Assembly (NCBI GenBank): GCA_013205405.1
Contig: JABMMZ010000015.1
Coordinates: 75,586-139,585, forward strand
DNA: 64,000 nucleotides
Reading direction: 5' to 3'
From: Bacteroidota bacterium
Lineage (GTDB): Bacteria > Bacteroidota > Bacteroidia > NS11-12g > UBA955
Both the position numbers and the translations under genes were made by a program. Positions 1,936 through 38,108 of this stretch are shown here, in pieces (the stretch's first letter is position 1; each line of letters begins with the position of its first letter). Under the pieces are notes generated by a model. It was given only the letters and a program-made list of their open reading frames with translations. It had not been told where the DNA came from and searched no databases.

Positions 1936-4900
1936 TTACCATATTAAATAAACATAACCTTTGATAAACCGCATTGGTGTTTTCTTGCCTTTGTAACTTA
2001 CATAATACACATAGTAATCATTAGGACATAGGTTGCCTTTGTATTTACCATCCCAACCTACTTTATGGTCAGTGCTTTCAAATACTTTTTCGCCCCAGCG
2101 GTTAAATATTTGCATTTTACTTTTGGCTATAGTTGTGGAAACTATTTTGAAGGTTTCGTTTAAATCATCGTCATTTGGCGTAAAGCCTGTTGGTAGAAAA
2201 ATAGCAACTGTATCTAGCACACATACTTCTTGGCTAAAACTATCAATACAACCACCTAAATTGGTAATACGCAATGTAATTTTATACTTATCTGCATCGC
2301 CATCATAAAGGTGAATTGGGTTGGTATTAGGATCGTAACCTAATACTGTTCCATCTCCAAAATCCCAAGTGCCACTGGTTCCACCTTCACTTAAATTGAT
2401 AACTTGCAATTCTGCATTATTGCTATACAAACACTGACCAGAAGGGGAGTATGAGAAATACGCTCTAATGCGCGGATAACCAGGTATGGTAGCCATTGTG
2501 TCATATATACAGCCAGTTGAGGTATTGGTTACTTTTACACGGTAAGAGCTGCTTACAGGAGCATTTATATTAGCAGTGTTTTGCGCTGGTACTGTATTCC
2601 ATAAGTAGGTAAATTTACCTGCACCTATCATGGTTAAATTAATAAAGCCTCTTTCGCCATAACATTTAATAGGGCTAGTAGTTACGTTGCTATAAAGTTG
2701 TGGATGCACATAAACTAATTTTTGAAGAATAACAGAATCACTGCAGCCATCGCTTAGTGAAGCAGTATATAAAGTACTTACTTTAGGCGAAACATAAATG
2801 GCTTGCACATTGTATTGCCCGCTATTCCATCGCAATATATGTGTGCCCGAACCTCCTTTACTGATTGTATTTAAAGCTACTGAATTGCCTATACAAATAG
2901 AATCTTTGGTGCTACTTAAAGTCAATCGCAAAGTATCACCAACTTCTGTTGGTCTTATGATAGAATTAACACATTTGCCAGTTCCTATCTTATAAGTAAT
3001 ATTATGGGTGCCAGTACCAGCTGCTTTTGGGTTAAATGCACTGCCAATTATTCCTTTGCCTGTTAATAATCCTCCTAAAGGATTAAGGGTTAAATTAATA
3101 AGTGTATCTTTAAAACAATAAAAAGGTTTCAGTCCAAGAATATTGGCTGCGGGTAAACTTATAACCGTTATTTTAACAGTATCTATACATTTACCAGGTA
3201 AATTAAAGAGTATTTTATGTACTCCAATACCTGCTACTGAAGGACTAAATATACCAGTTACGCCATTCGTAATTCCTCTGCCACTAAAAGTACCTTTTTT
3301 CTCACCATTGTATAATTTAAAAGGGTCATCAGCTATGCAAAAAGTAGTATCATTTTGTATTTTAGCTTTTGGGTATACTTGTATAATTATAGTGTCTTTG
3401 CAGCCATTTCCATCTCCTATTACTTGGTGAAATCCTGAACCGGCTAGTATTGGACTGAATTTTTGGTAGTAAACAGCACTACCAACTATGCCAGCACTAC
3501 CTGAAAATAATAAATTCCAAGGGTCATTTTGAACATACTGCCATCTTAAAAAGTAAGCGGTATCGTACAAACAGTTTTTAACTGTATCTTTATAAAAACG
3601 GCTATAGCGCAGGTACATTACTTTATCGTCTTTACAGCCTTCTAGGGTAGTGTAGGTTAAATCGACTTGTACAAATGTACTTTTTCCGGGCACTCTAAAA
3701 CTGTCTGCATCAAAAATACCATTGGCAGCATCAAAAATACCTTTTCCACTCCATTTTCCACCAGCGGGCAATCCAGCAGGAAGTGTCCTTTGTCCTGCGT
3801 CAGGACAAGCTACTTCATCCCAACGGGCATCTACATCTTTTATAAATCTTTCTAATGTATCTTTACAGCCATTTATGGAGTAAATGTATCTTTTATTACC
3901 AGCACCAGCCGCATTCGGATTATTATAACCTCTTATGGCATTGGTAACAGATGGGCCAGCCCAGCTACCACCTATGGGTGTAAAAGCAATGGTGTCTATT
4001 GTTTTAGATTTGCATACTGTATCAAATTGTTTGATTACAATGCCATCTATATTGATAGTTTTATTAGCATTACAGCCATTCCAAGTATAAGTTACTACAA
4101 ATGAGCCAGGTGAACTTGGGGGTGTAATAAGTCCTGCTGTGGTAATATTAGGGCCACTCCAAGTACCACCTGGGGGCGAAAAATTATAAACCATAAAATT
4201 GGCTGCACTAGGGCAAGAAGCATTAGGAGCTCCTGCATTTATGGCTCTTACTGTTACCACTACTGTATCAGCACATTTCCCAATAGTATAAGCAATTTTA
4301 AATACACCAGCGCCAGAGGCAGCAGGATTGAAAGTGCCATTTGTAGCATTGGTAATACCTGTGCCACTCCACTTTCCTCCGAGGGTGTAAGATGTTAAAT
4401 TAAAAGCCCCACTGGATTGACAAACAATGGTATCATTTTGCGCCACTGGTGGGGTTACTACTACAATATCAATTGTATCTTTACCAGCTACTGATACGCC
4501 ATCCGCCACTTCTAAAATATAACGTGTATCTACAGTTGGGCAAACATACTTAGGAGGCAAGCCAGACAAACCGCCACTTATCCAAGTGTAAGCATAATTT
4601 GCAGGATTGCCGCCTGTTACAGTAGCTGTTAAGGTGGCACAACTGCCTTTGCAAATAGTATCTTTAGTCGTTCTGAGTATTACTTTTATTGGGCAATCTA
4701 TAATTTTAAAATTTAGCTTAGCATTTATTTTCCAAATACTATCGCACTTATCTTTAAAAGTAGTATTAAAATCGAGGGTATAATTTCCGCTTTTATTAAG
4801 GCCACTTGCAAATGTGATATCAAAAGTGTTGGTTTCGTTTTTACTATCGCAGCCTATAGGTGTTACGCCACTAATAGCGGTAGAAAGAGTGCCACTTAAT

Positions 4901-5490
4901 TTAAAATTTTTAGCTTTTACTGAGTCACAATTTAACTTTTGGTCGAGCACAATTCTAATTTTAGTACTATTACAAGTAGGATTTGAAATGGGGGTAAATT
5001 TAGGAGTAGGAACTGTAGTTATTTTAGCTTCCCAACTCAATTCAAATCCTTCTAGATTATAGTTTTTATCAGAGTGAAAATAAAAAGTCATACAGCTATC
5101 GTTAGCTGTAAAAGTGCCTGTAGGTCTTGTATTACCGCTCCATTTACCAATTTGAGTTCCGGTAGTATCTCTACCTTTGTGTGCTCTTAAAAAGTCGGTT
5201 CCACTTTCTATTTGAAAAGTGCTTGCAAACTTGAAATTAATACTGCTAGCGCCTTTTACACAAATAGTAAAAATATAATCTTCATTGCTAGCGTAATAGG
5301 TTGTATTTACAGTATTTTCCTCACTGTCTGTAAGCTTTCCTCTGCAATCAGAAGAGCCTCCATTGCCCATTTTAAAAGTATTTTGCGCATAAATTGAATT
5401 TAGAAAAATAAAAAACAAGCCTAAAACAACTATTTTTTTATAACTGAATTGGAGTAATTTGATTTTATATTTTAATAATTTTTGAAACAA
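1936..5490 (-). CDS. Giant secreted surface protein: signal peptide, N-terminal CUB-like domain, repeated Ig-like modules, PKD domain, type-B T9SS C-terminal sorting domain
   Basis: 1184 aa. The signal peptide ends ...NSIYAQ. The CUB-like stretch runs from CRGKLTD to GFELSWEA. At least six repeats have the form 'GGxWSGxGI..G.F.P..AG.G'. PKD signature TWDFGDGT. The C-terminus FTPNDDDLNETFKI...IFNRWGEKVFES...WDGKYKG...YYVYYVSY...GYVYLIW matches the gliding-motility-associated (type-B) CTD pattern. Confidence 0.85.
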   Translation of the reverse strand: MFQKLLKYKIKLLQFSYKKIVVLGLFFIFLNSIYAQNTFKMGNGGSSDCRGKLTDSEENTVNTTYYASNEDYIFTICVKGASSINFKFASTFQIESGTDFLRAHKGRDTTGTQIGKWSGNTRPTGTFTANDSCMTFYFHSDKNYNLEGFELSWEAKITTVPTPKFTPISNPTCNSTKIRIVLDQKLNCDSVKAKNFKLSGTLSTAISGVTPIGCDSKNETNTFDITFASGLNKSGNYTLDFNTTFKDKCDSIWKINAKLNFKIIDCPIKVILRTTKDTICKGSCATLTATVTGGNPANYAYTWISGGLSGLPPKYVCPTVDTRYILEVADGVSVAGKDTIDIVVVTPPVAQNDTIVCQSSGAFNLTSYTLGGKWSGTGITNATNGTFNPAASGAGVFKIAYTIGKCADTVVVTVRAINAGAPNASCPSAANFMVYNFSPPGGTWSGPNITTAGLITPPSSPGSFVVTYTWNGCNANKTINIDGIVIKQFDTVCKSKTIDTIAFTPIGGSWAGPSVTNAIRGYNNPNAAGAGNKRYIYSINGCKDTLERFIKDVDARWDEVACPDAGQRTLPAGLPAGGKWSGKGIFDAANGIFDADSFRVPGKSTFVQVDLTYTTLEGCKDDKVMYLRYSRFYKDTVKNCLYDTAYFLRWQYVQNDPWNLLFSGSAGIVGSAVYYQKFSPILAGSGFHQVIGDGNGCKDTIIIQVYPKAKIQNDTTFCIADDPFKLYNGEKKGTFSGRGITNGVTGIFSPSVAGIGVHKILFNLPGKCIDTVKITVISLPAANILGLKPFYCFKDTLINLTLNPLGGLLTGKGIIGSAFNPKAAGTGTHNITYKIGTGKCVNSIIRPTEVGDTLRLTLSSTKDSICIGNSVALNTISKGGSGTHILRWNSGQYNVQAIYVSPKVSTLYTASLSDGCSDSVILQKLVYVHPQLYSNVTTSPIKCYGERGFINLTMIGAGKFTYLWNTVPAQNTANINAPVSSSYRVKVTNTSTGCIYDTMATIPGYPRIRAYFSYSPSGQCLYSNNAELQVINLSEGGTSGTWDFGDGTVLGYDPNTNPIHLYDGDADKYKITLRITNLGGCIDSFSQEVCVLDTVAIFLPTGFTPNDDDLNETFKIVSTTIAKSKMQIFNRWGEKVFESTDHKVGWDGKYKGNLCPNDYYVYYVSYKGKKTPMRFIKGYVYLIW

Positions 5491-5492
5491 GT

Positions 5493-5939
5493 TTATTTAG
5501 TAATTGTAATGTTGGGTGTTAAAATGGTATTACTCCAATTGCCTTTTCTATCTCTTAATTTCAATTCGAATGAGGTAACTTCGGTGTTACTGGTACCCAG
5601 TAGAAATGTGTTTTTTAATTGTACTACCAATTGTCCTTTTATCTTAATTTTACTATCGGGCGGTGCTAAAGGTTTTACAAAATAATAATCTGCTTTGCTT
5701 AAGCGTTTATCTTTTACTTGCAGATTATTTTCATCTGGATTAATATTGCCAATATCGCCATCGCCATCTGTATATTCAAATACAATACTTAGGCTATCTG
5801 TAAATTGTTTAACTGAAGTAGAAGAAATAGAAATTAGTTTAATAACTGGTACTTCACTTGTTGCAGCATCTTTCTTACAAGCAAAAAAACCAATGGCAAT
5901 AGATACAAAACTTAATATTTTAATTGTTAGGTTTTTCAT
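5493..5939 (-). CDS. Small lipoprotein of unknown function (probable Ig-like fold, DGDGDIG motif)
   Basis: I prefer the start at M8 of the tracked ORF (MKNLTIKILSFVSIAIGFFAC-KK lipobox). That start lies 1 nt after the stop of the upstream gene. The stop lies 2 nt before the start of the giant T9SS gene. Confidence 0.65.
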   Translation of the reverse strand: MKNLTIKILSFVSIAIGFFACKKDAATSEVPVIKLISISSTSVKQFTDSLSIVFEYTDGDGDIGNINPDENNLQVKDKRLSKADYYFVKPLAPPDSKIKIKGQLVVQLKNTFLLGTSNTEVTSFELKLRDRKGNWSNTILTPNITITK

Positions 5940-5940
5940 A

Positions 5941-6891
5941 TTAATTAATTCTAAGTGCAAAATAGGTTTTGGCTTTAAAAGAAGCCGTTACATTTGGAAT
6001 TATAGTAAGTCCATTTACATTATCAGTAGTTATAGTTCGTATCCATATTACATTGCCCATTATACCAAGTTGAGATAATGGAATTGTAATGCTGAACCAA
6101 TAATTAACATCGGTACCATTAAATCCTTTTGCTAAAAAAGAAGAGGACTCCTTCGTCATAGTCTTTTCGGTATTGCTATAATTATTGGGGTCTAAAGTAT
6201 AATTGAGGGTGGTAGCTCCAAAATTATTTAAAGGTGTTTTATCATCTGAATAGGCTACCATTAATTTTACGTTAGTAGTTCCACCTGGAATATTTATAGG
6301 AGAATTACCGCTACGACCAAGGGGAGTGCTTGAACCATCTGCAAAAGCTATTAAACCTCCTATTTGTGGAGAAAAATCATAACTGGCTGGGCTAGCACCA
6401 AATTGATCTTTGGCACCTGCATTTATCCAATTGGTAATATTTTGAATATATTCCGCTTGTTTGGCTGTCCAATCGCTATTAGGTTCTAGTGATAATGGCA
6501 TTTTGCCTTGAGAGCCAGGAATAAATACATTTATACGGTGTAGTAACATACTTGCTGCTGAATTGCTAGGCACTACACGTTTGGTTAGCGAGCTATTATT
6601 GGGGTCGGTATTTGTGACTAAACGACCTATCAATGAGTTGTAAGAACTTTCAACACTTCTAAAATCAGGTTCAAAATTTCCGTCATGGCAACCACTATTA
6701 GCGCAAGTAGGTTTAAATATATTTTTATGCAATCCTTGAATAGTATTGGGGTCAATAGTACTATCTTGATTTGCTGGCGCTTTTGTAGTATTACTCCAAT
6801 TATCATAAGGATTTTTATTCTTATTTGATTTTTTACAACCGAACATAAGAACAAGTCCAAAGAGGGTAAAATATATAATTTTTATTTTCAT
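5941..6891 (-). CDS. Lipoprotein with a PSCyt1-like (planctomycete-cytochrome-c-like) domain carrying a CX4CH motif, followed by a beta-rich C-terminal domain
   Basis: 316 aa. Lipobox LMFGC-KK. The stretch FKPTCANSGCHDG...RVVPSNSAASMLLHRI...GKMPL...ITNWINAGAKD parallels the PSCyt1 consensus (C..CHG ... vvPG.peeSlL..ri ... MPp ... l..WI..GA). Confidence 0.6.
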   Translation of the reverse strand: MKIKIIYFTLFGLVLMFGCKKSNKNKNPYDNWSNTTKAPANQDSTIDPNTIQGLHKNIFKPTCANSGCHDGNFEPDFRSVESSYNSLIGRLVTNTDPNNSSLTKRVVPSNSAASMLLHRINVFIPGSQGKMPLSLEPNSDWTAKQAEYIQNITNWINAGAKDQFGASPASYDFSPQIGGLIAFADGSSTPLGRSGNSPINIPGGTTNVKLMVAYSDDKTPLNNFGATTLNYTLDPNNYSNTEKTMTKESSSFLAKGFNGTDVNYWFSITIPLSQLGIMGNVIWIRTITTDNVNGLTIIPNVTASFKAKTYFALRIN

Positions 6892-6895
6892 TCAA

Positions 6896-8224
6896 TTATA
6901 TTCTATCAAATAAACTTCTTGAAGCACCTTCAACAAGGCCTGCGGCTTGCACTTCGCTTTTATAGCCTAGTATTTGTGCAATAGTTAAACTAAAATCTGT
7001 AACTCTACCAATAGGATTGGCTTCGCTACCTACCATTAAATTGCTTTGTACATTTGGTCCTACCATTCCGCCAAATACACGCAATGAATTGGCATCACCA
7101 TGATCGTAACCATACCAATCGTTGGCATCAATAATTGGATTGTTTTTTTGATTTCTACCACATTCAGGCGCAAAGCACATAATAGTTTTACCACTCATTT
7201 CTGGAATTTGTGTTTGAATATAATTCCACAAGAAACCCATAGCGTGATCGGCACGGTGCATGGCTTGCAAATAACCAGTAAAATTACCATGACAACCATC
7301 AATATTACTCATGTTTACAACCAATAATTTTGGTTTAAATACACGCAAAACTTCTGCAGCATAGCCTATAGTAGAACCATCGCCACCGCTTACAGGAGGC
7401 ATTGGCAATTGACCAGCCGCTTGGCGTTCGAAAGTTGCTTTTATAAATTCTTTAATACGGGTACGTTCATCATCTGTATTTTTAATGCCCGGCAAATCGC
7501 CTTTTTTAATATTAAATGAATTATCTAAAAAGTTTTTCATTTTATACATCGGGTCCAATTCCTCTTGAGGATGGTAAATTTTAGCATTAGAAAGTACAGC
7601 CATTCCATCACTACCAAAAGTAATATTTGGTGCAAAAAAATTGGCGCCATATTGTAAACCAAAGTCTGGGTGTTTACTAGAGTTTAATAATGGAGTGCTA
7701 TTGCCTATACCATTGCCAATAAACCAAGTATCGGTTGCTTTATAGCCACCAAATCTTCTAGCATATTCAAATATAGTAGGATTTACAGGGCGAACTTTTA
7801 AGCCTTGTCCAGCCACGCCACTGCCTGTAATCAAAGAATTTAAGCCGCCATAATGTCCTCCAGAAACTGCACGCATTTCTGAAAAAATGGTACCTTGTTT
7901 TTGTATCGTTTGAGACAATAATTTAGGTATTGGAGAGGCTCCATTTACCCCTGTGCCATAAGCTATTTTAGAGGTAGGCGCTTGACCTTCTAATATGTTG
8001 GTTAAAATATTACCTTCAACATTAAATCCTTGGCTATCTGCTAAATAACGCTGTAATATAGAATCTTGCTGACGTAATCCGCCTGCAAAAAGAACATATA
8101 CTACGTGGTCGGCCATAGGTGCATTAGATTGGGCGTATAATCTACCGGATGGTAATATATAGGGTAGCACTATTCCACCTGCGGTAATAGTAGCTGTTTT
8201 CTTTACAAAATCTCTTCTTTTCAT
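6896..8224 (-). CDS. Tat-exported DUF1501-like enzyme (alkaline-phosphatase/sulfatase superfamily-like)
   Basis: 442 aa. Twin-arginine signal MKRRDFVKK...AGG. The motifs VVYVLFAGG, NIDGCHGNF and PECGRNQ...GYDHGD are placed like the conserved metal-site blocks of DUF1501 proteins. Assignment is by eye only. Confidence 0.55.
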   Translation of the reverse strand: MKRRDFVKKTATITAGGIVLPYILPSGRLYAQSNAPMADHVVYVLFAGGLRQQDSILQRYLADSQGFNVEGNILTNILEGQAPTSKIAYGTGVNGASPIPKLLSQTIQKQGTIFSEMRAVSGGHYGGLNSLITGSGVAGQGLKVRPVNPTIFEYARRFGGYKATDTWFIGNGIGNSTPLLNSSKHPDFGLQYGANFFAPNITFGSDGMAVLSNAKIYHPQEELDPMYKMKNFLDNSFNIKKGDLPGIKNTDDERTRIKEFIKATFERQAAGQLPMPPVSGGDGSTIGYAAEVLRVFKPKLLVVNMSNIDGCHGNFTGYLQAMHRADHAMGFLWNYIQTQIPEMSGKTIMCFAPECGRNQKNNPIIDANDWYGYDHGDANSLRVFGGMVGPNVQSNLMVGSEANPIGRVTDFSLTIAQILGYKSEVQAAGLVEGASRSLFDRI

Positions 8225-8237
8225 AATCTTTTAATTT

Positions 8238-8738
8238 TTAATAAAACATATATTCATCGGATGCGGCAAAGGAAGTATAGACTATCTCTGGGCGAAAATT
8301 TGGATTGCTTTTATTTGAATTTATAAAATTAATAAACCAAGTTTTTTCTGCCTCAGTAGGTCTACGAATAAAGAACCTGATATAAGTTTCTTCAATAAAC
8401 TTTTCAGTACTATCTACCATGCGCTGTCTGCTTGGTAATTTTACAGTAGGTGAGTTCATATAATTACTTATAATTACTTCATTAATAAGAGTTTTATCAC
8501 CACAACTTTGAATCACTCTGTCGGTTCTGGTTAGTTCATTTATAGAAGATGGTTTTTGAAATAAATTAGTAGTTAAAATACTGTGAAATTCAATATTTGA
8601 TTTGCTTTTATCCTTATTTAAATTATCGCCATAAGAGGTTGTATCTAAAACGTCATAGCGAGTATTGTCATTCTTTTTGCAACCAAAAAAAACGAGTATC
8701 AATAAGATAGGAATCCATTTAAAAATGTGCGTATTCAT
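8238..8738 (-). CDS. Lipoprotein with one DUF4214-like module, unknown function
   Basis: 166 aa. Lipobox LVFFGC-KK. The C-terminal module is FIEETYIRFFIRRPTEAEKTWF...IVYTSFAASDEYMFY. The start overlaps the upstream gene by 20 nt. Confidence 0.6.
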   Translation of the reverse strand: MNTHIFKWIPILLILVFFGCKKNDNTRYDVLDTTSYGDNLNKDKSKSNIEFHSILTTNLFQKPSSINELTRTDRVIQSCGDKTLINEVIISNYMNSPTVKLPSRQRMVDSTEKFIEETYIRFFIRRPTEAEKTWFINFINSNKSNPNFRPEIVYTSFAASDEYMFY

Positions 8739-9633
8739 CTGTTATGAGTATTTGTGTTTGTATTTTTTGTAAATTTTGGGTAGCGTAAAAATCTTTTACT
8801 AAGTTGAAAGTTTCTTGTGTATTGGGCTCGCGGCCTATGAGAGATAAATAGCACCATTTGATAATACCTTCCGAAAATTCTTTTGAATTAACTAACATAG
8901 CGCAATACTCGGCTTTATTGCCAGCATAACCAGTAAATAAACTGCCCGGTTTACTAGATTCTATTATATCGTAGGCTATTGTAAACTCATCGCGTGTAGG
9001 AAATCTAAAAAACATATCATCAAATGAAGCATTTACAAAGTTTAATGAATTCATATTTATCTGATCATAAATAGGATTGTTCAACATGGCGGCATACATT
9101 TTATTAATGGTTATTTCACCAACTTGGTACCTTCTGCGGCTTCTTGGTACATTTAAACATTTATCTATAGTTTCCATTGCTTGAAAAACACCTATAGAAT
9201 CACCCAACAAACGAGAAGACCTGAGTGCAAAAGCTGCATTACCCGCCTGACCATAAAATTCACCTTCTTCTGCACCTTCTACTAAGCGGGCTTTAGTTAA
9301 ATCGTAAATTCTTTGGTAGTAGGCTCTTTTATATGATGAATCGCCAGGTACAAAAATAGAATCTGTCATTAAGCGTGTAATTAAAAGTTTACGTGTATCA
9401 TAGCTTAAATTACCACCTCTTAAAAAACCTAAATCTCTATCGTTTTCCGTATCTAAAGGTTCTCTGCCAAGTAAATCTATATATAATCTATTGATATAGT
9501 TTTCTACTTTTACAGTAGATACATTTTCATAATTTTTAGGAACATTGCCTGTAACTATTTTCTCGTCCTTTTTAGAGCAAGAAATGATTAAAGTAAATGA
9601 GAAAAATAGAAAAAGGGTAGTTTTTACACTCAT
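8719..9633 (-). CDS. Lipoprotein with three DUF4214/PSCyt2-like 'LLGREP ... SxEF' modules, unknown function
   Basis: 304 aa. Lipobox LIISC-SKK. Modules: YINRLYIDLLGREPLDTE...LITRLMTDS, FVNASFDDMFFRFPTRDEF...AMLVNSKEF and IIKWCYLSLIGREPNTQETF...ILITDEYAHF. Confidence 0.6.
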   Translation of the reverse strand: MSVKTTLFLFFSFTLIISCSKKDEKIVTGNVPKNYENVSTVKVENYINRLYIDLLGREPLDTENDRDLGFLRGGNLSYDTRKLLITRLMTDSIFVPGDSSYKRAYYQRIYDLTKARLVEGAEEGEFYGQAGNAAFALRSSRLLGDSIGVFQAMETIDKCLNVPRSRRRYQVGEITINKMYAAMLNNPIYDQINMNSLNFVNASFDDMFFRFPTRDEFTIAYDIIESSKPGSLFTGYAGNKAEYCAMLVNSKEFSEGIIKWCYLSLIGREPNTQETFNLVKDFYATQNLQKIQTQILITDEYAHF

Positions 9634-9734
9634 AGATACTTATAGTTTTATAAAATGCTAAATTACTAAAAAAAATTTAATTTTCAAAATAAATATTTAA
9701 ATAATTGATATTCAATGCATTAAAATCAATGTAT

Positions 9735-11798
9735 TTAATTTTTAACAGGTAGGTAACTGTAGTTTTTACTGTATCTTAACATTTGGTTTATAAAACTTTC
9801 AGTATAATCTATTTTTAAATCTATAATTTTATCTCCATTCATAATAGGTGTAAGTTTAGGCTGAATAAAACCACGAAAAGCAGCAACATCTAATTCTTTA
9901 GCTGTTTTTAATACTTCATTGTGAATTTCTGTATTTACTTTCACCCCAAAATTTTCTACTAAATTCATAGCTTCGGTAAAATTGCCTGTAGATTTTATGT
10001 CTTGTATTTTATTTAATAAATTACCAAAAAGAACACGCAGTTTTTCATAATTATTAATTACAAAAAAAGTTTTACCATCGCGCATTTTTCTTTCAATTAC
10101 ATTTTCTTTTTTGCCAGCTTCATATATCCACAATGCCACTAATTGCCTATTACGCATGTGGTCTTCTTCCAAGTTTTCGCCCGCTTGAACTCTTCTTAAT
10201 TGCACCATTAAACCATCGCGTATATAACTATCATACTCCGCTTTGCCTACTTCTAAGCTAGGCATTAAACCTAGCTCAACTAATTTTGGATCTAACATAT
10301 AGTATAAAGCCACTAAATCGGCTCTGGCTTCTTCTAAAGTACTGCCATATTGCTTGGTATCGCCTTTGGTAACACCTTTGTTTAGCTGCCCACTGGCATG
10401 TCCTATTACCTCATGCATGGCAGTGTGCATTTTAGCGGCTAGTTGTCCATAGGATTTGCTGCGGTTTACTTGTTCCTCATTCCAACAAAATTCGGTTAAT
10501 AATCCACCTGAGTTTGCTTTGTTATAAGCATCTACAATATTGCCTAAACTTACAGATTTAGAGCCGTGTTTTTCTCTTATCCACTCTGCATTTGGCAAGT
10601 TTACACCAATAGCAGTACTAGGCGACATATCACCACCTTCCATTACGGCATTTACTACATTATAAGTAATGCCTGTTACTTTGGCTTTTTTATATTTGGC
10701 ATCAATAGGAGAGTTAGTTTCAAACCATTGGGCATTTTGAGCTAAGGTTTTCATTCTGTCTGAGGCTTCCATATCTTTAATTTCTACTAAGCTTTCAAAA
10801 TTGGCTCTTCGGCCTTTGGCATCGTGGTATACTTCTATAAAACCATTGATAACATCAATACTACTATTTACATCCTTTACCCAAGCTATATTATAAGCAT
10901 CCCAAGTTTTTAAATTACCTGTTCTATAAAATTCTATAAGTAATTTTAAGGCATCATTTTGTTCCTTAGTTTCAGTTACGGTCAATGCTTTTTCTAACCA
11001 ATACACAATCTTAGAAATAGCCATATTGTACATGCCGCCAACTTTCCAAGTTTTTTCAACAAGTTCAGAATTTTCCATTACCATTTTACTATTCAATCCC
11101 CAACTGATGGGGTCTATGGAATCGGCTGCTTCCTTTGGTCCATAATAGTTTTCTACTTGCTCTTCGCTTACACCTTCGTAAAAATTATTAGCACTTTCTG
11201 CAATTTGGTCTATACCATTAGCCTTATTTACACGCTTGGCTTCTGTTTTAGGATTAAAAATAAAATCGATTAACCAATTGTTAAAGTTTTCGGCAGTTAA
11301 ACCCTGCATTGGCAGTTTTGCTTTAGGCGATTGTTTGATAAGTGCCAATAAATAATTAGATGAAAATTCAGGTGAAATTTTATTTTCTGCATAGTGGTGG
11401 TGTACGCCATTACTGGTCCATATCCGTTTTAAAAATACTTCAAAACGTCTGAAATCTTGAGTGGTTTTATCGCCTTCAAAATTGGTATAAATTTCTTCAA
11501 GGGTTTTTCTAAGTTGTAGGTTATATTTGTTATTCTGATCGTAAATAATATCTCTACCACACAAGGCTGCTTCACTTAAATAATAAACTAAAGTTTTTTG
11601 TTGTAATGAGAGTTTTTCGAAACCGGGCACATCATATCTTAATATTTCAATATCTGCAAAACGGTTATCGTTTTCATACAGTTTGTAAATTATATTAACC
11701 GAATCGGATACATTCGTATTTTTTTTGCTATTTATAGCATTATTACATGAAGACAATAATAATCCACCGACAAAAGTAATTAGCATTAAGTTTTTCAT
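9735..11798 (-). CDS. Dipeptidyl-peptidase III-like zinc metallopeptidase (M49 family), lipoprotein form
   Basis: 687 aa. HEVIGH (HExxGH) and EEARADL zinc-binding motifs of family M49. N-terminal lipobox LLLSSC-NN. Confidence 0.8.
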   Translation of the reverse strand: MKNLMLITFVGGLLLSSCNNAINSKKNTNVSDSVNIIYKLYENDNRFADIEILRYDVPGFEKLSLQQKTLVYYLSEAALCGRDIIYDQNNKYNLQLRKTLEEIYTNFEGDKTTQDFRRFEVFLKRIWTSNGVHHHYAENKISPEFSSNYLLALIKQSPKAKLPMQGLTAENFNNWLIDFIFNPKTEAKRVNKANGIDQIAESANNFYEGVSEEQVENYYGPKEAADSIDPISWGLNSKMVMENSELVEKTWKVGGMYNMAISKIVYWLEKALTVTETKEQNDALKLLIEFYRTGNLKTWDAYNIAWVKDVNSSIDVINGFIEVYHDAKGRRANFESLVEIKDMEASDRMKTLAQNAQWFETNSPIDAKYKKAKVTGITYNVVNAVMEGGDMSPSTAIGVNLPNAEWIREKHGSKSVSLGNIVDAYNKANSGGLLTEFCWNEEQVNRSKSYGQLAAKMHTAMHEVIGHASGQLNKGVTKGDTKQYGSTLEEARADLVALYYMLDPKLVELGLMPSLEVGKAEYDSYIRDGLMVQLRRVQAGENLEEDHMRNRQLVALWIYEAGKKENVIERKMRDGKTFFVINNYEKLRVLFGNLLNKIQDIKSTGNFTEAMNLVENFGVKVNTEIHNEVLKTAKELDVAAFRGFIQPKLTPIMNGDKIIDLKIDYTESFINQMLRYSKNYSYLPVKN

Positions 11799-11877
11799 TT
11801 GGTAAAAATAAAGTAAATTTTAATAGAATAAAATTGTTGTGAAAAAAATTACGGAAACAAAAGCAAAAAATTAAAAG

Positions 11878-11961
11878 TGCCCGCGACAAGACTCGAACTT
11901 GCACAGCCGTAAGGCCACCACCACCTCAAGGTGGCGTGTATACCAATTTCACCACACGGGC
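11878..11961 (-). tRNA. tRNA-Leu (anticodon GAG), 84 nt, long variable arm, no encoded CCA
   Basis: The reverse complement folds by hand. Acceptor GCCCGTG/CGCGGGC with discriminator A. Anticodon stem CCACC/GGTGG with loop TTGAGGT. Variable stem GGCC/GGCT. T-arm GCAAG-TTCGAGT-CTTGT. Confidence 0.9.
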
Positions 11962-12382: not shown

Positions 12383-13780
12383 CTATTTAAGCACTAAACT
12401 TAGCAAGTAATATAATAAACCAGCTAAAGTAATTGTTACAGGTAAGGTTAAAAGCCAAGCTATGGCTATGGCTTTTATAGTAGCAGGTTGTAAGTTTTTA
12501 ACGCCTTTACTCGCAGTCATAGCACCTGCTACGCCACTACTTAGTACATGAGTTGTTGATACAGGCAAACCAAATTGAGTACTTAAGCCAATGGTGAATG
12601 CCGCAGTAAGCTCAGCACTTGCTCCTTCTGCATAAGTCATGTGACGTTTACCTATTTTTTCGCCAATAGTTACTGCTATGCGTTTCCAACCTATCATAGT
12701 ACCTAAACCTAAACTTAAAGCTATCATTATAGTAACCCAATAAGGTATTGATTCAGTAGATTTTTTTAAATATTTAATTTCTTCTTCTATAGCAGTCACA
12801 TTTTGAGGATTATCTGCAAATGTTTTACTTTTTATATCAGTCTCTAAACGTTTAATTAATTTGGCAATTTTAGTTCTTAAAACAACTGTTTGCTTTTTAA
12901 ATTCTGTAGGCAATTCATTACTATTGGATTTAATGGCGATATAACTATTTACATTTTCTTTTAAATCATTCGTTTTTATAATAAGATCAACTTTATTTTC
13001 TGCTTTCAAGGCATTTTCTATATTAACAACAGAATTCAAACAAACATTGGCATCAAACTTTTCATCCAGTGCAAATTGAATTGGCAAAAAAGTGATTAAA
13101 ATGATTAGCATTAATCCAATACCTTTTTGACCATCATTATTGCCATGAAAAAAACTAACCATGGTACACGTTAATATTAATATACCACGAATCCAACTTG
13201 GTGGTCTTTGACCAAGCTCAGGTTCTTTAAAGATTTCTTTGCGCACTTTTACAACTCTTTTAAGAATGTACATAAGTAAAATAGTAATTGAAAAACCAAT
13301 GAAGGGAGATATTAGTAATGATAAACCTATTTCAGATGCCTTGCCCCAATTAACACCATCTCCCCCATGAAGCCAGTAAAATACAATACCCACCCCTAAA
13401 ATTGAACCTATCATGGTGTGTGAGCTACTGCATGGGATACCAAAATACCAAGTCCCTAAATTCCATAATATGCCAGAAAGCATCATACCTAAAACCAAAC
13501 TAGCACTTTCTCCGGTACTCATCATTACCAAATCGGTAAGTGGGAGCAGATTAACTATACCCATGGCTACTTTAAAACCAAAATAACTGCTAACAAATAA
13601 GCCTAAAAAATTACAAAACCCACTCCAAACCACCGCATAAGTTGGTTTTAAAGAGTTAGTATATATTACCGTAGCTACCGCATTGGCAGTATCGTGAAAG
13701 CCATTGGCAAACTCAAATACACATACCGTAATGACGCATAATAAAAATAAGACCGCTAAATAAGTTTCTAATCCGAACAT
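12383..13780 (-). CDS. Inorganic phosphate transporter, PiT family
   Basis: GFHDTANAVATVIYT and the C-terminal PVSTTHVLSSGVAG PiT signatures, with a large central loop. The tracked ORF begins at a TTG (13789). I prefer the ATG at 13780 (MFGLETY...). Confidence 0.85.
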   Translation of the reverse strand: MFGLETYLAVLFLLCVITVCVFEFANGFHDTANAVATVIYTNSLKPTYAVVWSGFCNFLGLFVSSYFGFKVAMGIVNLLPLTDLVMMSTGESASLVLGMMLSGILWNLGTWYFGIPCSSSHTMIGSILGVGIVFYWLHGGDGVNWGKASEIGLSLLISPFIGFSITILLMYILKRVVKVRKEIFKEPELGQRPPSWIRGILILTCTMVSFFHGNNDGQKGIGLMLIILITFLPIQFALDEKFDANVCLNSVVNIENALKAENKVDLIIKTNDLKENVNSYIAIKSNSNELPTEFKKQTVVLRTKIAKLIKRLETDIKSKTFADNPQNVTAIEEEIKYLKKSTESIPYWVTIMIALSLGLGTMIGWKRIAVTIGEKIGKRHMTYAEGASAELTAAFTIGLSTQFGLPVSTTHVLSSGVAGAMTASKGVKNLQPATIKAIAIAWLLTLPVTITLAGLLYYLLSLVLK

Positions 13781-13838
13781 ATAGGGCAAAGGTGCAATCT
13801 AATTGTTAGAAAATTGTTACTTTAAAAACATCTAATTA

Positions 13839-25726: not shown

Positions 25727-26109
25727 ATCAATTTAGAAAAAATATAGAAACCGAAACGAACGAAACTAAAGCACCTGTAAATGCAGCAGCAGATGAAGCT
25801 ATAAAAAAAGCTACTGAATTTACATTTTTAGATAAGGAGACTTTAAATAAAGCATTGCCAGCTATAATTTTTTGTGTTGTAATTGCTATCGTTTATATTT
25901 CATTGTCGCATTTTCATGTTAAAAGTTTAAAGAAAAAAGCGGAACTAAAAACAGAACTAAATGAGCTACGATCAGAATATATTACTGTAAAAAGTAGCTT
26001 AATGAAAAAGAGTAGCCAAAGTGAAGTGGCTAAAGATTTAATGCCAGAAGGAGTTAAAGAATTAAGAACACCACCTTTTATTATTTTAAAAGAAAAAAAT
26101 AAAAAATGA
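25723..26109 (+). CDS. ftsL: FtsL-like cell-division protein (single TM helix plus coiled coil)
   Basis: 128 aa. One TM helix (LPAIIFCVVIAIVYISL) followed by a heptad-rich segment. Canonical position between rsmH and ftsI, with 4-nt overlaps on both sides. Confidence 0.7.
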   Translation: MNQFRKNIETETNETKAPVNAAADEAIKKATEFTFLDKETLNKALPAIIFCVVIAIVYISLSHFHVKSLKKKAELKTELNELRSEYITVKSSLMKKSSQSEVAKDLMPEGVKELRTPPFIILKEKNKK

Positions 26110-28208
26110 ATTTAAAAAAAGCCATACTACTGCGAGCTTGGATAGCCTTTATCATGATATTGATATTGGCCATTAGCATTGTATGGCAAATAATTGAATT
26201 GCAATTTACACAAAAGGAAAAGTACATGGCTATAAGCAAAGAGCGTAGTACAAAAATGAGAGAAATTGAAGCTTCGCGAGGTAATATTTATGCAGACGAT
26301 GGCAGCTTATTAGCCACCAGTATTCCAAAATATGAAATAAGAATGGATACCAAAGTGGAATCGGTAACCAATGAATTTTTTAAGGAAAAAGTAGATAGTT
26401 TAGCTTGGAATTTAAGTCAAGCATTTGAAGATAAAACGCAAGCGGAGTGGCGCAGATATTTGATAGAAGCAAGGGCCAGAAAAGATGGGTATTTATTAAT
26501 AAAGAGAGATGTAGACTATGTTTTAGCAAAACAAATGAGTAGGTGGCCAATTTTTAATTTAGGAAAATTTAAAGGCGGTTTTATAAAAATAGAAAAAAAT
26601 AAACGTGAGATTCCCTTCGGGCAATTGGCTGCTAGAACTATAGGTTATACTAATTTGTCAGGAATAAAAATTGGGTTAGAAGGTGCCTATGATTCCTTAT
26701 TAACCGGCACTAGTGGACAAAGGTTAGAGCAACGTATTTATGGTGGTGTTTGGAAACCAGTAGACGATGATGCAGCACTAGAACCACATAATGGCTTTGA
26801 TGTTTTTACCACTATTGATATTCATATTCAGGATGTTGCTGAAAATGCTTTGAAACAATGTTTAATTGTCAATAATGCCGACCACGGATGTGCTATTTTA
26901 ATGGAGGTAAAAACGGGAGCTATTAAAGCCATAGCCAATTTGAAAAAGACTTCTGATGGCGTATATGAGGAAACCGATAATTATGCTATTAACGAATTTT
27001 CAGATCCAGGCTCAACCTTTAAATTGGTCAGTGCTCTAGCATTATTAGAAGACAAATATGTAAAACTAACAGATACAATAGATATTGAATGGGGTAAAAC
27101 TACATTTGGTCCTTTGCAAATGGAAGATGCGCATACTTCGCCTTTCAAAAAAATATCATTTCAACATGTTTTTGAAAACTCAAGTAATGTAGGAATTGCT
27201 AAATCAGTTAATAAATTCTACAAAAATAATCCTGAAAAATATTTGCAATATGCTACTAATTTAGGCTTAAATAAGAGCTTGCCTTTTGATATAAAATCAT
27301 CGCGCAATCCCACTTTGCAAAGTAGTAAAAGTAAAGGGTGGAGTGGTACATCATTGCCTTTTATGAGTATAGGATATGAAATGGCTGTTAGTTCTTTACA
27401 AATACTTTCTGTTTACAATGCAGTGGCTAATAATGGAGAATTGGTAAAACCATATTTGGTAAAAGAAGTAAAAGAATTTGGCAAAATTATTCAAAAAAAT
27501 GAAGTAATAGTTCTAAATAAAAAAATATGCAGTGACGAGACTTTAAAACAATTGCGCATTCTACTTGAAGGTGTTGTAGAGAATGGTACAGCAAGTAGTT
27601 TAAAAGGACTGCCATATAAGGTAGCTGGCAAAACCGGAACGGCACAAATAGCTATGAATAATGGTTTTGATAAAAGTTCGCATAAAGCTTCTTTTGTTGG
27701 TTATTTTCCTGCTGATAATCCGCAATATACCTGCATGGTAGTAATCAATGCACCTAGTAAAGGTGATTACTATGGTGGCGCGGTTGCAGGTCCGGTTTTT
27801 AAAGAAATAGCAGACAAAGTATTTAGTACACGTATGGCACTTCATAAACCGATAAGCTCTATGGCAAAACCTATTGTTCCAAAGGTAAAAAATGGTAAAC
27901 GTGAAGATATTAAAACTGTTTTAAACAAACTGAATGTGCCTAGCAATCAAGTAAAAGGCAATGCAGATGGCGAATGGGTAAAAACAGGATATGATGTTCA
28001 ATCTATCAATTTAAAAGAATTAGAAACAAATAAAAATTTAGTCCCAGATGTAATGGGAATGGGCTTGCGAGATGCCATTTATTTATTAGAAAATAGAGGC
28101 CTGAAAGTAATTTCAGAAGGCTATGGTGCAGTTTCGTCACAATCGATAATAGCAGGTAGCAATATTATTAAAGGTTCTACTATAATTATAAAACTAAGTA
28201 ACGGCTAA
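26106..28208 (+). CDS. ftsI: Peptidoglycan D,D-transpeptidase FtsI (class B PBP) with C-terminal PASTA domain
   Basis: 700 aa. N-terminal TM helix, STFK active-site motif (GSTFKLVSA), SSN and KTGT motifs. PASTA-like tail VPDVMGMGLRDAIYLLENRGLKV. Confidence 0.9.
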   Translation: MNLKKAILLRAWIAFIMILILAISIVWQIIELQFTQKEKYMAISKERSTKMREIEASRGNIYADDGSLLATSIPKYEIRMDTKVESVTNEFFKEKVDSLAWNLSQAFEDKTQAEWRRYLIEARARKDGYLLIKRDVDYVLAKQMSRWPIFNLGKFKGGFIKIEKNKREIPFGQLAARTIGYTNLSGIKIGLEGAYDSLLTGTSGQRLEQRIYGGVWKPVDDDAALEPHNGFDVFTTIDIHIQDVAENALKQCLIVNNADHGCAILMEVKTGAIKAIANLKKTSDGVYEETDNYAINEFSDPGSTFKLVSALALLEDKYVKLTDTIDIEWGKTTFGPLQMEDAHTSPFKKISFQHVFENSSNVGIAKSVNKFYKNNPEKYLQYATNLGLNKSLPFDIKSSRNPTLQSSKSKGWSGTSLPFMSIGYEMAVSSLQILSVYNAVANNGELVKPYLVKEVKEFGKIIQKNEVIVLNKKICSDETLKQLRILLEGVVENGTASSLKGLPYKVAGKTGTAQIAMNNGFDKSSHKASFVGYFPADNPQYTCMVVINAPSKGDYYGGAVAGPVFKEIADKVFSTRMALHKPISSMAKPIVPKVKNGKREDIKTVLNKLNVPSNQVKGNADGEWVKTGYDVQSINLKELETNKNLVPDVMGMGLRDAIYLLENRGLKVISEGYGAVSSQSIIAGSNIIKGSTIIIKLSNG

Positions 28209-28209
28209 T

Positions 28210-29667
28210 ATGTATTTCAAAGATTTAATAAAAAATATAGAGATAATTAATACATACGGTACAGATAATGTATTGGTAAAAAAGCTAGAAATAGATTCTA
28301 GAAAGGTAGAAAAAAATACAATGTTTTTTGCCGTAAAAGGAACAGTTGTAGATGCGCATCAATATATTTCGGGAGTAATTGAAATGGGAGCTTCTGCTAT
28401 TGTATGTAGCGAATTGCCAACAGAAATTAATGCACATGTTGCCTATGTTCTGGTAAAAGATGTTCAGCAAGTTATAGGATATTTCGCTTCTAATTTCTAT
28501 AGTGCACCATCAGAAAAAATGAAGTTGATAGGGGTTACAGGTACCAATGGAAAGACCACCACTACTACTATGTTATATCAGTTATTTACAGCATTAGGAC
28601 ATACTTGTGGTTTAATAAGTACAGTAGAATATATTATTGGAAAAGAAACATTTACAAGCACACACACCACACCTAATCCTATTCGTATTAATGAGCTAAT
28701 GGCTGAAATGGTCGATGCTGGATGCAGTTATTGTTTTATGGAGGTAAGTTCGCATGCTATAGTTCAAGGTAGAATAAATGGACTACAATTTGATGGGGCA
28801 AGTTTCACCAATATTACGCACGATCATTTAGATTATCACATAACCTTTGATAACTACATAAAAGCCAAAAAATTATTCTTTGATAATTTATCTTCAGATG
28901 CATTTGCATTGGTAAATAAAGATGATAAAAATGGAAATATAATGTTGCAGAATACCAAAGCATCAAGATATACTTTTGCTTTAAAATCGAGTGCAGACTT
29001 TCAATGCAAAATAATAGAAAGCGATTTTAATGGCTTGTTATTAAAAGTGGATACTTTAGAAGCATGGTTTGGTATGGTTGGTAAATTTAATGCATACAAC
29101 CTATTGGCAGTATATGGAACAGCTTTTTTATTAGGAGTTTCGCAACAAGAAATAATAACAAAACTAACCTTACAAGGCCGAGTAAATGGCAGATTTGAAG
29201 TATACAAGAGTAGTAAAGGTGTAGTAGGAATTGTAGATTATGCCCACACGCCCGATGCTTTAGTCAATGTATTAGATACTATTAATAATATTAGAACAAA
29301 GAACGAACAACTAATAACCGTATTAGGATGCGGGGGCGATAGAGATAAAACTAAAAGACCAGTAATGGGAAAAGTGGCGACTCAATTAAGTGATAAAGTA
29401 ATATTTACAAGTGATAACCCACGAAGTGAAAATCCAGATAGTATAATAGGAGAAATGTATGATGGTGTGGAAGCTATTAATTATAAAAAAACATTAAAAA
29501 TTGCCGACCGTAAAGAAGCCATAAAAACGGCCATAATGATGAGTAATCCCAAAGATATTATTCTAATAGCAGGCAAAGGTCACGAAACCTACCAAGAAAT
29601 AAATGGGGTAAAATATCCATTTGACGATAGACTCATTTTAACAGAAATATTTAATCAAACTATATAA
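28210..29667 (+). CDS. murE: UDP-N-acetylmuramoyl-L-alanyl-D-glutamate--2,6-diaminopimelate ligase
   Basis: 485 aa. GVTGTNGKTTTT P-loop and the DNPR motif (FTSDNPRSENP) typical of DAP-adding MurE. Confidence 0.92.
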   Translation: MYFKDLIKNIEIINTYGTDNVLVKKLEIDSRKVEKNTMFFAVKGTVVDAHQYISGVIEMGASAIVCSELPTEINAHVAYVLVKDVQQVIGYFASNFYSAPSEKMKLIGVTGTNGKTTTTTMLYQLFTALGHTCGLISTVEYIIGKETFTSTHTTPNPIRINELMAEMVDAGCSYCFMEVSSHAIVQGRINGLQFDGASFTNITHDHLDYHITFDNYIKAKKLFFDNLSSDAFALVNKDDKNGNIMLQNTKASRYTFALKSSADFQCKIIESDFNGLLLKVDTLEAWFGMVGKFNAYNLLAVYGTAFLLGVSQQEIITKLTLQGRVNGRFEVYKSSKGVVGIVDYAHTPDALVNVLDTINNIRTKNEQLITVLGCGGDRDKTKRPVMGKVATQLSDKVIFTSDNPRSENPDSIIGEMYDGVEAINYKKTLKIADRKEAIKTAIMMSNPKDIILIAGKGHETYQEINGVKYPFDDRLILTEIFNQTI

Positions 29668-29670
29668 AAA

Positions 29671-30927
29671 ATGCTATACCATTTATTTACATACTTATAC
29701 GATAAATACCATATTTCGGGTTTTGGTGTTTGGCAATATTTAACTTTTCGCTTTAGTCTAGCGGTTATTTTATCCTTACTTATTTCAGCCGTATTTGGCA
29801 AGCGTTTAATCAATGCCTTGCATCAGTTGCAGGTATCTGAAACTATTCGTGATCTTGGCTTACAAGGCGAAGAAAAGAAACGCGGGACACCTACTATGGG
29901 CGGCTTAATAATTATTGGTGCAATATTGATACCTACCCTTTTGTTAGCAAGACTTACCAATGTTTATGTTTTGCTAATGATAGCGGTTACTGTTTTATGC
30001 GGTATGATTGGTTTTATAGACGATTATATCAAGGTATTTAAAAAAGATAAAGCGGGCCTTTCTGGCAGATATAAAATAATAGGTCAAATAATAGTAGGTT
30101 TACTTGTAGGCTTAACCTTATATTTTAATAAAGCTGTGTTAGTAACAAATCATTATACAGTAAAACAAGCCATAGATTTAAAGTTAGATACCTCGCAATT
30201 AAAAGCCAAAACTATTCAAGGCGAAAGGTTTTTTATGCAAAATGTAAAATCTACCCAAACTACAATTCCATTTTTAAAAACATCCGAATTTGATTATTGT
30301 AGTATTGCTTCTTATTTTGGAGAAACGGCAAGTAAATATTGTTGGGTAGTTTATGTTTTAATCGTTATTTTTATTATAACAGCTGTATCCAATGGGGCAA
30401 ATATTACTGATGGAATTGATGGATTAGCGGCTGGTACATCTAGTATAATTGGGCTCACATTAGGGGTGTTTGCTTTTGTTTCAGGCAATTTTATAATAGC
30501 CAAATATTTAAATATAATGTATATTCCCTTTTTAGGCGAATTGTTCGTTTTTGCTGGTGCATTTGTAGGTGCTTGTATAGGGTTTTTATGGTACAATAGT
30601 TACCCTGCTCAAGTCTTTATGGGCGATACAGGCAGCTTAACATTAGGTGGTATTATAGCTGCATTGGCTATTATAGTTCGTAAAGAGTTATTGATACCTA
30701 TATTATGCGGTATTTTTTTAGTAGAAAATTTAAGTGTTATGATACAAGTAGCCTACTTTAAATACACCAAAAAGAAATGCGGTGAAGGTAGGAGAATTTT
30801 CCTCATGTCGCCCATACATCATCATTATCAAAAGAGAGGATTTCATGAAGCTAAAATTGTAACAAGATTTTGGATTATAGGAATTATACTAGCCATTTTA
30901 ACATTTATTACTTTAAAAATTAGATAA
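29671..30927 (+). CDS. mraY: Phospho-N-acetylmuramoyl-pentapeptide transferase
   Basis: 418 aa polytopic membrane protein. [30 protein letters not shown] and PIHHH motifs. Confidence 0.93.
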
Positions 30928-30930
30928 ATA

Positions 30931-32292: not shown

Positions 32293-32327
32293 AAATATAA
32301 GATTTTCTTATTCATAATATAAAATGA

Positions 32328-36792: not shown

Positions 36793-36809
36793 AAGAAAAA
36801 TAAAGTAAT

Positions 36810-38099: not shown

Positions 38100-38108
38100 A
38101 AAACAAAA

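Follow-up and report, generated by a model that had tools for sequence, protein, structure and literature searches.

What might a Bacteroidota bacterium do with six tightly packed minus-strand genes, here named A to F, that occupy positions 1936 to 9633 of the window (the whole stretch analysed, 64,000 nucleotides (nt) of contig JABMMZ010000015.1 from the UBA955 lineage)? The original prediction, made from the letters alone, proposed a possible Bacteroidota counterpart of the DUF1501 and PSCyt1-PSCyt2-PSD1 gene pair. The evidence presented here leans towards one operon, predicted to encode a cell-envelope module with a conserved core of five proteins, A to E. We also favour, with moderate confidence, the view that this cassette is a remote, split, lipoprotein-based relative of the pair, as judged from profile comparisons. 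The six genes are:

8719-9633, minus strand, gene A, a 304-residue lipoprotein (Cys19) with three helical modules of ~55 residues
8238-8738, minus strand, gene B, a 166-residue lipoprotein (Cys20) with a single C-terminal module at ~8241-8426
6896-8224, minus strand, gene C, a 442-residue protein of the alkaline-phosphatase superfamily with predicted twin-arginine translocation (Tat) export
5941-6891, minus strand, gene D, a 316-residue lipoprotein (Cys19) with a PSCyt1-like N-terminal domain and an immunoglobulin (Ig)-like C-terminal domain
5493-5939, minus strand, gene E, a 148-residue Asp-rich lipoprotein (Cys21), counted from ATG
1936-5490, minus strand, gene F, an 1184-residue secreted surface protein with a TTG start

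The predicted layout was recovered from the DNA without change: the junctions from A to F are -20, +13, +4, +1 and +2 nt, and the 3´ end of A is overlapped by B over 20 nt. The ATG was used as the start of gene E; the mechanical list of open reading frames (ORFs) also gives a TTG at 5960. Because the 101 AT-rich nt 5´ of A (9634-9734, minus strand) form the sole sizeable intergenic gap, this segment is the likely promoter region. No exact Bacteroidota-type TAnnTTTG box was found within 9634-9734, a sigma-70 scan revealed no enrichment (27 sites found versus 40 expected), and a terminator scan returned no convincing terminator within the A-F operon. The export signals also agree with what had been predicted. 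Proteins A, B, D and E carry lipoprotein-type signal peptides, and the lipobox Cys (C19 in A, C20 in B, C19 in D and C21 in E) is kept across homologues. Protein C starts with MKRRDFVKK, a Tat-type motif; the match of TIGR01409 to this motif is sub-threshold, and TAT_signal matches three of 28 C homologues. In Pfam and NCBIfam scans of the six window proteins, F alone was recognised.

The cassette is conserved as a unit, which supports the original prediction. A scan of one genome per GTDB species yielded 475 stretches encoding C relatives, of which the best 80 were examined; every one of these 80 comes from metagenome-assembled Bacteroidota. Neighbours were counted in these loci and in four loci from assemblies, with only the loci that hold enough sequence on the relevant side included. 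Beside C, A is present in 71 of 73 loci, B in 78 of 79, D in 77 of 77, E in 72 of 74 and F in 57 of 58. All 67 loci that hold the six genes are colinear on one strand, and the genes flanking the cassette vary between loci. This operon-like arrangement of A to F is far beyond chance. C is the most conserved protein of the cassette, with a median identity of 63%, and F and D are the least conserved (42-43%). At the cluster level, 1045 homologues of C and 634 of D were found, all hypothetical proteins and all from uncultured Bacteroidota; no Pfam domain occurs among the 120 C homologues listed or among the D homologues listed.

The core of the cassette is not specific to Bacteroidota. A metagenome scan was seeded with a four-sequence alignment of distant C relatives, a 19-sequence alignment (A8) being too divergent. 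It returned 80 loci, of which 18 are marine Bacteroidota with the full cassette and most others have a guanine-cytosine (GC) content of 63-72%; the contig names of many high-GC loci recur in soil and rhizosphere data sets. In this high-GC soil lineage the A-B-C-D-E order is kept, and the family hidden Markov models (HMMs) recognise A-like (E-values to 1e-18), B-like (1e-12), C-like (1e-34 to 1e-44), D-like (1e-16) and E-like (1e-7) proteins. Judging from these matches, the core cassette is older and wider than Bacteroidota. In ~6 of 24 high-GC loci (for example L110:9810-11285, L111:3670-5127 and L105:2894-4501), E is followed by a same-strand ORF of ~490 residues. Pfam does not recognise this ORF, which may be a sixth gene particular to the lineage and standing in for F.

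Protein C contains the following elements:

8201-8221, minus strand, Tat motif KRRDFVK
8063-8083, minus strand, GGLRQQD
7853-7855, minus strand, His124
7289-7300, minus strand, D309xxH312
7154-7168, minus strand, PECGR
7100-7105, minus strand, D374-H375

An AlphaFold2 model of C built on 28 homologues (predicted local distance difference test (pLDDT) 77.6, predicted template-modelling score (pTM) 0.82) matches sulfatases, alkaline phosphatases, phosphonate monoester hydrolases and LTA synthase in Foldseek, with a probability of 1.00 and E-values of 6e-9 to 1e-5. The core α/β fold of the alkaline-phosphatase superfamily is present in C, together with the DxxH and D/E-H metal positions. A search of the PDB with a profile of C relatives gave NPP (E 6e-12, with the motifs aligned) and sulfatases (5e-9), and phmmer and hmmsearch runs of C and D against PDB sequences gave nothing useful. 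When the profile of C relatives is placed on the Xanthomonas NPP, D309/H312 correspond to D210/H214 and E354-C355 to D257-H258. The active site itself is altered. The strand-1 Asp of NPP ('DGLR') is Gly in C ('GGVR'), His124 occupies the nucleophile position and is invariant where NPP has the nucleophile Thr, and C contains no Ser, Thr or formylglycine nucleophile. An acidic residue, the DxxH pair, the E-C/H pair ('PECGR') and the DH pair are conserved. Residues 21-31 of C (PYILPSGRLYA, 8132-8164) lie just after the twin Arg, nominally within the signal peptide, and are invariant or nearly so. They are kept in the intermediate C relatives P0241-P0258, with a conservation far above that usual for the h-region of a signal peptide; this segment may be retained in mature C or recognised by a partner or chaperone.

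Is C related to DUF1501, as its sequence blocks had suggested? By the criterion of Pfam, C is outside DUF1501: the DUF1501 HMM (gathering score 27 bits) has no match to C of the window, to 28 family members or to their consensus, even at E<=10, and weak Sulfatase and Phosphodiest matches are all that Pfam and NCBIfam domain models give for C, its homologues and the consensus. The resemblance holds in profile-profile comparisons with nine annotated, genuine DUF1501 proteins taken from plasmids, and in unusual motifs that are common to both. In hhalign, the close family of C aligns to DUF1501 end to end (E 7.6e-5 over 393 columns). An exhaustive profile search collected 840 C relatives at 50% clustering; the extended family reaches 98% probability (E 2.7e-13, 347 columns) with the nine proteins, and 95.8% (E 7.3e-9) after removal of the signal peptides. 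Reversed or column-shuffled controls give a score of ~24 or lower versus 44 for the real alignment. The C family and DUF1501 have in common, and NPP and sulfatases do not have, GG at the strand-1 Asp, an acidic residue four to five positions on, the ExGR strand end with DH ~17 residues later, and the Tat signal. The characteristic DUF1501 motifs are GGxSxxD after strand 1 and EFGR...GRDH. Within these motifs, C has Arg for the invariant Ser of DUF1501 (GGVR versus GGPS) and Cys or His for the Phe in ExGR; PEFGR is found in 11 distant C relatives. Taken together, C is predicted to be an alkaline-phosphatase-fold metalloprotein whose clade is related to DUF1501 and whose active site departs from the classical one. 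One GC-rich run-through ORF of the representative library, P0360 (997 residues), combines A-like modules of the 'LLGRVPSDDE' type, a C-like domain (VVLIAFAGGVRTRE...PEFGRD) and four CXXCH motifs at its C-terminus. Going by this composition, the C family may be tied to multihaem cytochromes in some lineages.

Protein D is the candidate electron carrier and contains the following elements:

~6412-6744, minus strand, PSCyt1-like domain
6685-6705, minus strand, CX4CH motif, C63 to H69
6499-6501, minus strand, Met131 of Met131-Pro132
~5944-6366, minus strand, Ig-like β-sandwich

The haem motif noted in D is not the canonical one: it reads C-ANSG-CH, a CX4CH instead of a CXXCH. All 30 sequences of alignment A2 carry it, and over 76 homologues its conservation is at least 90%. 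The high-GC homologues carry CX6CH (10 of 10 printed; a spacing of 2-5 was seen in none of 46 scanned), and the Met-Pro and the His are conserved there too. In the loci L094-L131 and L148-L164 (for example L104:8266-9270 and L112:3774-4760), the longer motif reads C-SGQPGL-CH. Such a lineage-dependent Cys spacing is unusual for a haem-type motif. The AlphaFold2 model of D (pLDDT 85.6) comprises helices 51-63, 80-85, 115-121 and 141-157, followed by β-strands between 176 and 315; weak Ig/C2-like matches of the whole chain in Foldseek come from the C-terminal domain. In the model, the Cys...Cys-His lies where helix 1 ends and Met131 lies in the loop preceding the final helix, positions that would fit the topology of a class I cytochrome c.

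The idea that D follows the PSCyt1 pattern survives in profile comparisons, although Pfam gives it no support. The PSCyt1 Pfam HMM (22 bits) has no match to D, to 30 homologues, to their consensus or to the high-GC homologues. Two reference sets were used: 120 genuine PSCyt1 proteins, fetched with a pseudo-consensus that scores 83 bits on PF07635, and the PSCyt1 domains of six PSCyt1-PSCyt2-PSD1 fusions. In hhalign, the D family aligns to the stand-alone set with E 1.5e-3, to the fusion set with 92.6% probability and E 4.5e-7 (94% and 1.2e-7 in another run) and to the merged set with 85.8% and E 5.4e-6; off-target comparisons of D give E 0.03-0.8. When the high-GC homologues are added, the match to PSCyt1 rises to 97% and E 4.8e-11 over 86 columns. 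The alignment brings together the first Cys, the Cys-His, the 'VPG..S' helix, the Met-Pro and the 'WI..GA' helix, with the extra inter-Cys residues of D as an insertion. Conversely, an HMM of the 120 genuine PSCyt1 proteins ranks only D-family members among A, B, D and E decoys, and the high-GC D homologues match it at 1e-4 to 1e-7. The N-terminal domain of D is thus a likely PSCyt1-type mono-haem cytochrome c, with the Met-Pro as the likely sixth ligand.

The three modules of A and the single module of B are both present as described earlier. The modules of A are located at:

~9340-9516, minus strand, first module
~8884-9051, minus strand, second module
~8722-8880, minus strand, third module

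Alignment A6 shows them as conserved 'NRLFIDLLGREP / FDDLFxRFPT / TLLxRxPxTxE' units. Among the 22 members of the A family, 15 match DUF4214 (counted at E<=0.1), 12 PBS_linker, eight PSCyt2 (best 1.2e-4) and two PSD1. Protein A of the window reaches 16.3 bits on DUF4214, compared with a gathering score of 23.2, and its PBS-linker match is also sub-threshold. Alignment A7, which combines 18 B with 18 E members, contains ten DUF4214 matches, likewise counted at E<=0.1; they presumably belong to B members, because the first E member gave no match. Over the A homologues and A7, the best DUF4214 E-values are ~2e-5. A high-GC B homologue (L104:6317-6871) passes Pfam DUF4214 at 32.9 bits, and high-GC A homologues match PSCyt2 in Pfam at 7.5e-6. 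In hhalign, the extended A family aligns to the N-terminal module of PSCyt2 with 95.6% probability and E 1.2e-8, and a further module with 73% and 3e-5. The A modules cover positions ~28-84 of PSCyt2 and align weakly to the C-terminal module of PSD1 (its last ~50 positions); B matches PSCyt2 weakly (E 6e-4). A similarity between A and B at 88% probability was rejected, as it involves the signal peptides only. The ~55-residue module of A and B is therefore one that is common to DUF4214, the PBS linkers, the PSCyt2 N-terminus and the PSD1 C-terminus. In this module A and B resemble parts of PSCyt2 and PSD, as had been proposed, but the full-length PSCyt2 (209 positions) and PSD1 (244 positions) are not represented, with the cores of both absent. 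A and B are helical lipoproteins that probably tether or organise the complex at a membrane.

Protein E contains the predicted DGDGD, within YTDGDGD at 5754-5768 (minus strand), and its conserved residues are D48, Y56, D58, G61, D62, G64, D69, D77 and D84. Pfam does not recognise E, and in hhalign it resembles none of D (including its β domain), F, PSCyt, PSD and DUF1501. E follows D in both the Bacteroidota and the high-GC lineages, and recognisable relatives occur within the cassette only. E is a small Asp-rich lipoprotein that possibly binds calcium.

How could these parts work together? The most likely arrangement, reading from the sequences, would pair C, as an extracytoplasmic metalloenzyme anchored through lipoproteins, with D as a small haem protein. 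The metal centre of C would act on an extracytoplasmic substrate, D would pass single electrons to or from this step through a His/Met-ligated haem, and A and B would serve as membrane-tethered scaffolds of the complex. In Bacteroidota, F, displayed through the type IX secretion system (T9SS), would probably capture a polymeric or particulate substrate at the cell surface. The analysis establishes the operon-like conservation, the folds and the remote homologies; haem binding, complex formation and redox coupling are our inferences. As the nucleophile and the first Asp are replaced, C has a predicted Tat export and its putative cytochrome partner is obligatory, a simple esterase would be disfavoured. 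The fuller proposal, that A to E form a widespread and hitherto unrecognised extracytoplasmic redox metalloenzyme system in which an alkaline-phosphatase fold is rewired for non-hydrolytic chemistry, with His at the nucleophile site, Cys or His as a metal ligand and Tat export, and fed by a CX4CH/CX6CH lipoprotein cytochrome c, as a minimal split form of DUF1501/PSCyt, is offered tentatively.

Several results weigh against this relationship and the roles built on it. No Pfam or NCBIfam model reaches its threshold on A to E of the window. DUF1501 matches 8 of the 62 full-length distant C relatives (best E 1.1e-6), fewer than Phosphodiest (22), Sulfatase (18) or Metalloenzyme (13), so that the description of C as closest to DUF1501 draws on the motifs and on hhalign. 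For the close family of C, removal of the signal peptides reduces the match to DUF1501 to E 2.2e-3, within the C-terminal third only, since the Tat signal gives much of the score. Foldseek with the whole D model returned no cytochromes. The Cys spacing of D is non-canonical and varies between X4 and X6, which leaves a disulfide or a metal site as a possible role for the two Cys.

The best-surviving rival is a plain nutrient-scavenging hydrolase, in which C would be a phospho- or sulfo-esterase that frees phosphate or sulfate from surface-captured substrates and the Cys of D would form a disulfide or a metal site without electron transfer. The fold and sequence relatives of C (NPP, sulfatases, PafA and PMH) are hydrolases, and the DxxH and the acidic/His metal ligands are kept. 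Haem is not usually attached through Cys spaced X4 or X6 as in D. In the window, the second protein-coding gene upstream of A, past an M49 peptidase and a tRNA-Leu, encodes a PHO4-family phosphate transporter. However, the canonical first Asp is Gly in C, and an invariant His rather than Ser, Thr or Cys stands at the nucleophile position. The Tat signal of C suggests a cofactor loaded in the cytoplasm. His69, Met131-Pro132 and both Cys of D are conserved together even between lineages as far apart as these two, and in the alignment they fall on the PSCyt1 haem ligands; the PHO4 neighbour is not conserved in other loci. A hydrolase of this kind is rather unlikely.

The next rival concerns F, whose domains are:

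5035-5346, minus strand, CUB-like domain, followed by Ig-like repeats
2230-2451, minus strand, PKD domain
1945-2196, minus strand, type-B T9SS C-terminal domain (CTD)

F has a signal peptide, and the CUB, PKD and CHU_C domains that had been noted were all seen: Pfam finds CUB (E 4e-8), Big_5, PKD and CHU_C (E 1.2e-17), with the type-B CTD at residues 1099-1182 scoring 64.3 bits on PF13585 (cutoff 27) and 55.7 bits on TIGR04131 (cutoff 35). Cargoes with a type-B CTD often need dedicated partners. A to E could accordingly be imagined as accessory machinery that modifies, anchors or helps to export F, like the partners of SprB-type adhesins, and F starts 2 nt after E and adjoins the cassette in nearly all Bacteroidota loci. 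Against this, the A-B-C-D-E order is kept in the high-GC lineage, where no F homologue was found 3´ of E; C is far better conserved than F (median identity 63% versus 42%); and no PorP/SprF-like or Gld family was recognised in the NCBIfam scan of the six proteins. As A to E occur without F, a role purely in servicing it is unlikely, and the accessory reading as a whole is very improbable. The absence of F from the high-GC lineage instead identifies it as a Bacteroidota-only addition to the A-E core. The proposed tie between F and the module holds within Bacteroidota, and F is not part of the core. Related parts may be arranged differently again in L170, a locus of 38% GC. At 1-1470, 6545-7474 and 9133-10740 it has a fragment resembling F (E 4e-38 with the F HMM), a distant relative of C and an ORF with a weak match to the DUF1501 profile (2e-5).

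Fortuitous clustering of unrelated hypothetical genes, for which nothing beyond the lack of annotation speaks, is hardly conceivable given that order and strand are kept across two lineages that diverged deeply, in over 100 loci whose flanks are unrelated.

The surroundings of the cassette in the window include:

9735-11798, minus strand, M49-family peptidase lipoprotein, upstream of the cassette
11877-11961, minus strand, tRNA-Leu(GAG), upstream of the cassette
12383-13789, minus strand, PHO4-family phosphate transporter, upstream of the cassette

None of these three adjoins the cassette elsewhere. With such a lack of conservation, the neighbours (M49 peptidase, PHO4 transporter and a SpoU methylase) give no functional hint. 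Farther along, an apparent division and cell-wall (dcw) cluster occupies 26106-39428 (plus strand). Two of its genes were verified, one for a penicillin-binding protein with a PASTA domain at 26106-28208 and the other for FtsZ at 38109-39428; those in between were judged by size and order only. A DUF5723-family protein of 1169 residues (48986-52495, minus strand) is the divergently oriented neighbour of a TonB-dependent receptor (52792-55236, plus strand).

The locus matters beyond this genome. The DUF1501/PSCyt pair is among the most expanded modules of unknown function in Planctomycetota and Verrucomicrobiota, with no function assigned since its description in 2004-2012. In Bacteroidota that abound in fresh water and the sea, and in a soil lineage, the cassette presents parts of this pair as individual small proteins, namely an alkaline-phosphatase-fold Tat protein, a likely PSCyt1-type cytochrome and the helical 'LLGRxP' module; with single-domain lipoproteins instead of fusions of 800-1100 residues, it would be a simpler biochemical system. 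The comparison also highlights the features that are truly conserved, namely the His at the nucleophile site, the ExGR...DH and the Cys...Cys-His...Met-Pro set. A to E add five families that are unannotated in current domain databases, each conserved in hundreds of metagenome-derived sequences. If the tentative redox system is real, its chemistry would assign a function to thousands of DUF1501/PSCyt genes of Planctomycetota and Verrucomicrobiota.

Compared with known systems, the cassette exhibits both shared elements and clear discrepancies. C has the fold of NPP (PF01663) and sulfatases (PF00884) with the same DxxH and acidic-His metal-ligand positions, but differs in the Gly for the first metal Asp, the His at the nucleophile, the Tat export and the absence of a formylglycine (CxPxR) motif. 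The modules of A and B match DUF4214 (PF13946), whose function is unknown, and the phycobilisome linkers (PF00427), and are found here in lipoproteins of an enzyme/cytochrome operon. Widened c-type haem motifs exist elsewhere, as CX3CH and CX4CH in Desulfovibrio cytochrome c3 and as CX11-17CH in MccA/SirA-type proteins. Like them, D combines a His with two Cys that are spaced by more than two residues. Unlike D, whose haem is only predicted, these cytochromes are multihaem proteins, and those with long spacers need dedicated lyases. F resembles T9SS cargoes with a type-B CTD (CHU_C/TIGR04131, SprB-like) in its signal peptide, Ig-like repeats and above-threshold CTD; compared with SprB it is much smaller, has a CUB-like N-terminal domain and no adjacent PorP/SprF-like gene, and is joined to an enzyme/cytochrome cassette.

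The closest comparison is with the pair itself. DUF1501 (PF07394) and PSCyt1-PSCyt2-PSD1 (PF07635/PF07583/PF07587) occur in Planctomycetota, Verrucomicrobiota and some Bacteroidota and Proteobacteria (PMC3542564, PMC5615132). The module was described by Kamneva et al. (2012), who proposed membrane-targeted electron transport (PMC3542564), and He et al. (2017) stated that nothing is known about its function (PMC5615132). Literature searches found no functional characterisation of DUF1501, DUF1549, DUF1553 or PSCyt. The pairing and its unknown function, on which the original prediction had drawn, are likewise evident in the loci L085-L093, where DUF1501 genes adjoin PSCyt1-PSCyt2-PSD1 genes, often with Laminin_G or CBM6 inserts. 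Canonical pairs are present in the Bacteroidota Haliscomenobacter hydrossis and Chondrinema litorale, and the cassette is consequently not the sole Bacteroidota counterpart. A SUMF1/EgtB-family gene lies near the Haliscomenobacter pair. In the plasmid loci L087, L091, L092 and L093 (Bacteroidota and Alteromonadaceae), canonical DUF1501/DUF1553 pairs are often accompanied by a '6-bladed beta-propeller' gene and by a 'c-type cytochrome domain-containing protein' of ~450-500 residues with an N-terminal membrane region.

In both the pair and the cassette, a Tat-exported alkaline-phosphatase-fold protein with GG...[D/E], ExGR and DH stands beside a protein with a PSCyt1-type domain. Both also have the ~55-residue 'LDLxGRxPxxxE' module, tight linkage and partners that often contain Ig- or CBM-like domains. 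In contrast to the canonical system, no Pfam threshold is reached in the cassette, and the PSCyt2 core, which has a CxxCH-like motif of its own, is absent together with the PSD1 core. The single fused partner is instead split into separate lipoproteins, the predicted haem motif is CX4CH or CX6CH, and the set is extended by the additional lipoprotein E and, in Bacteroidota, by the T9SS protein F.

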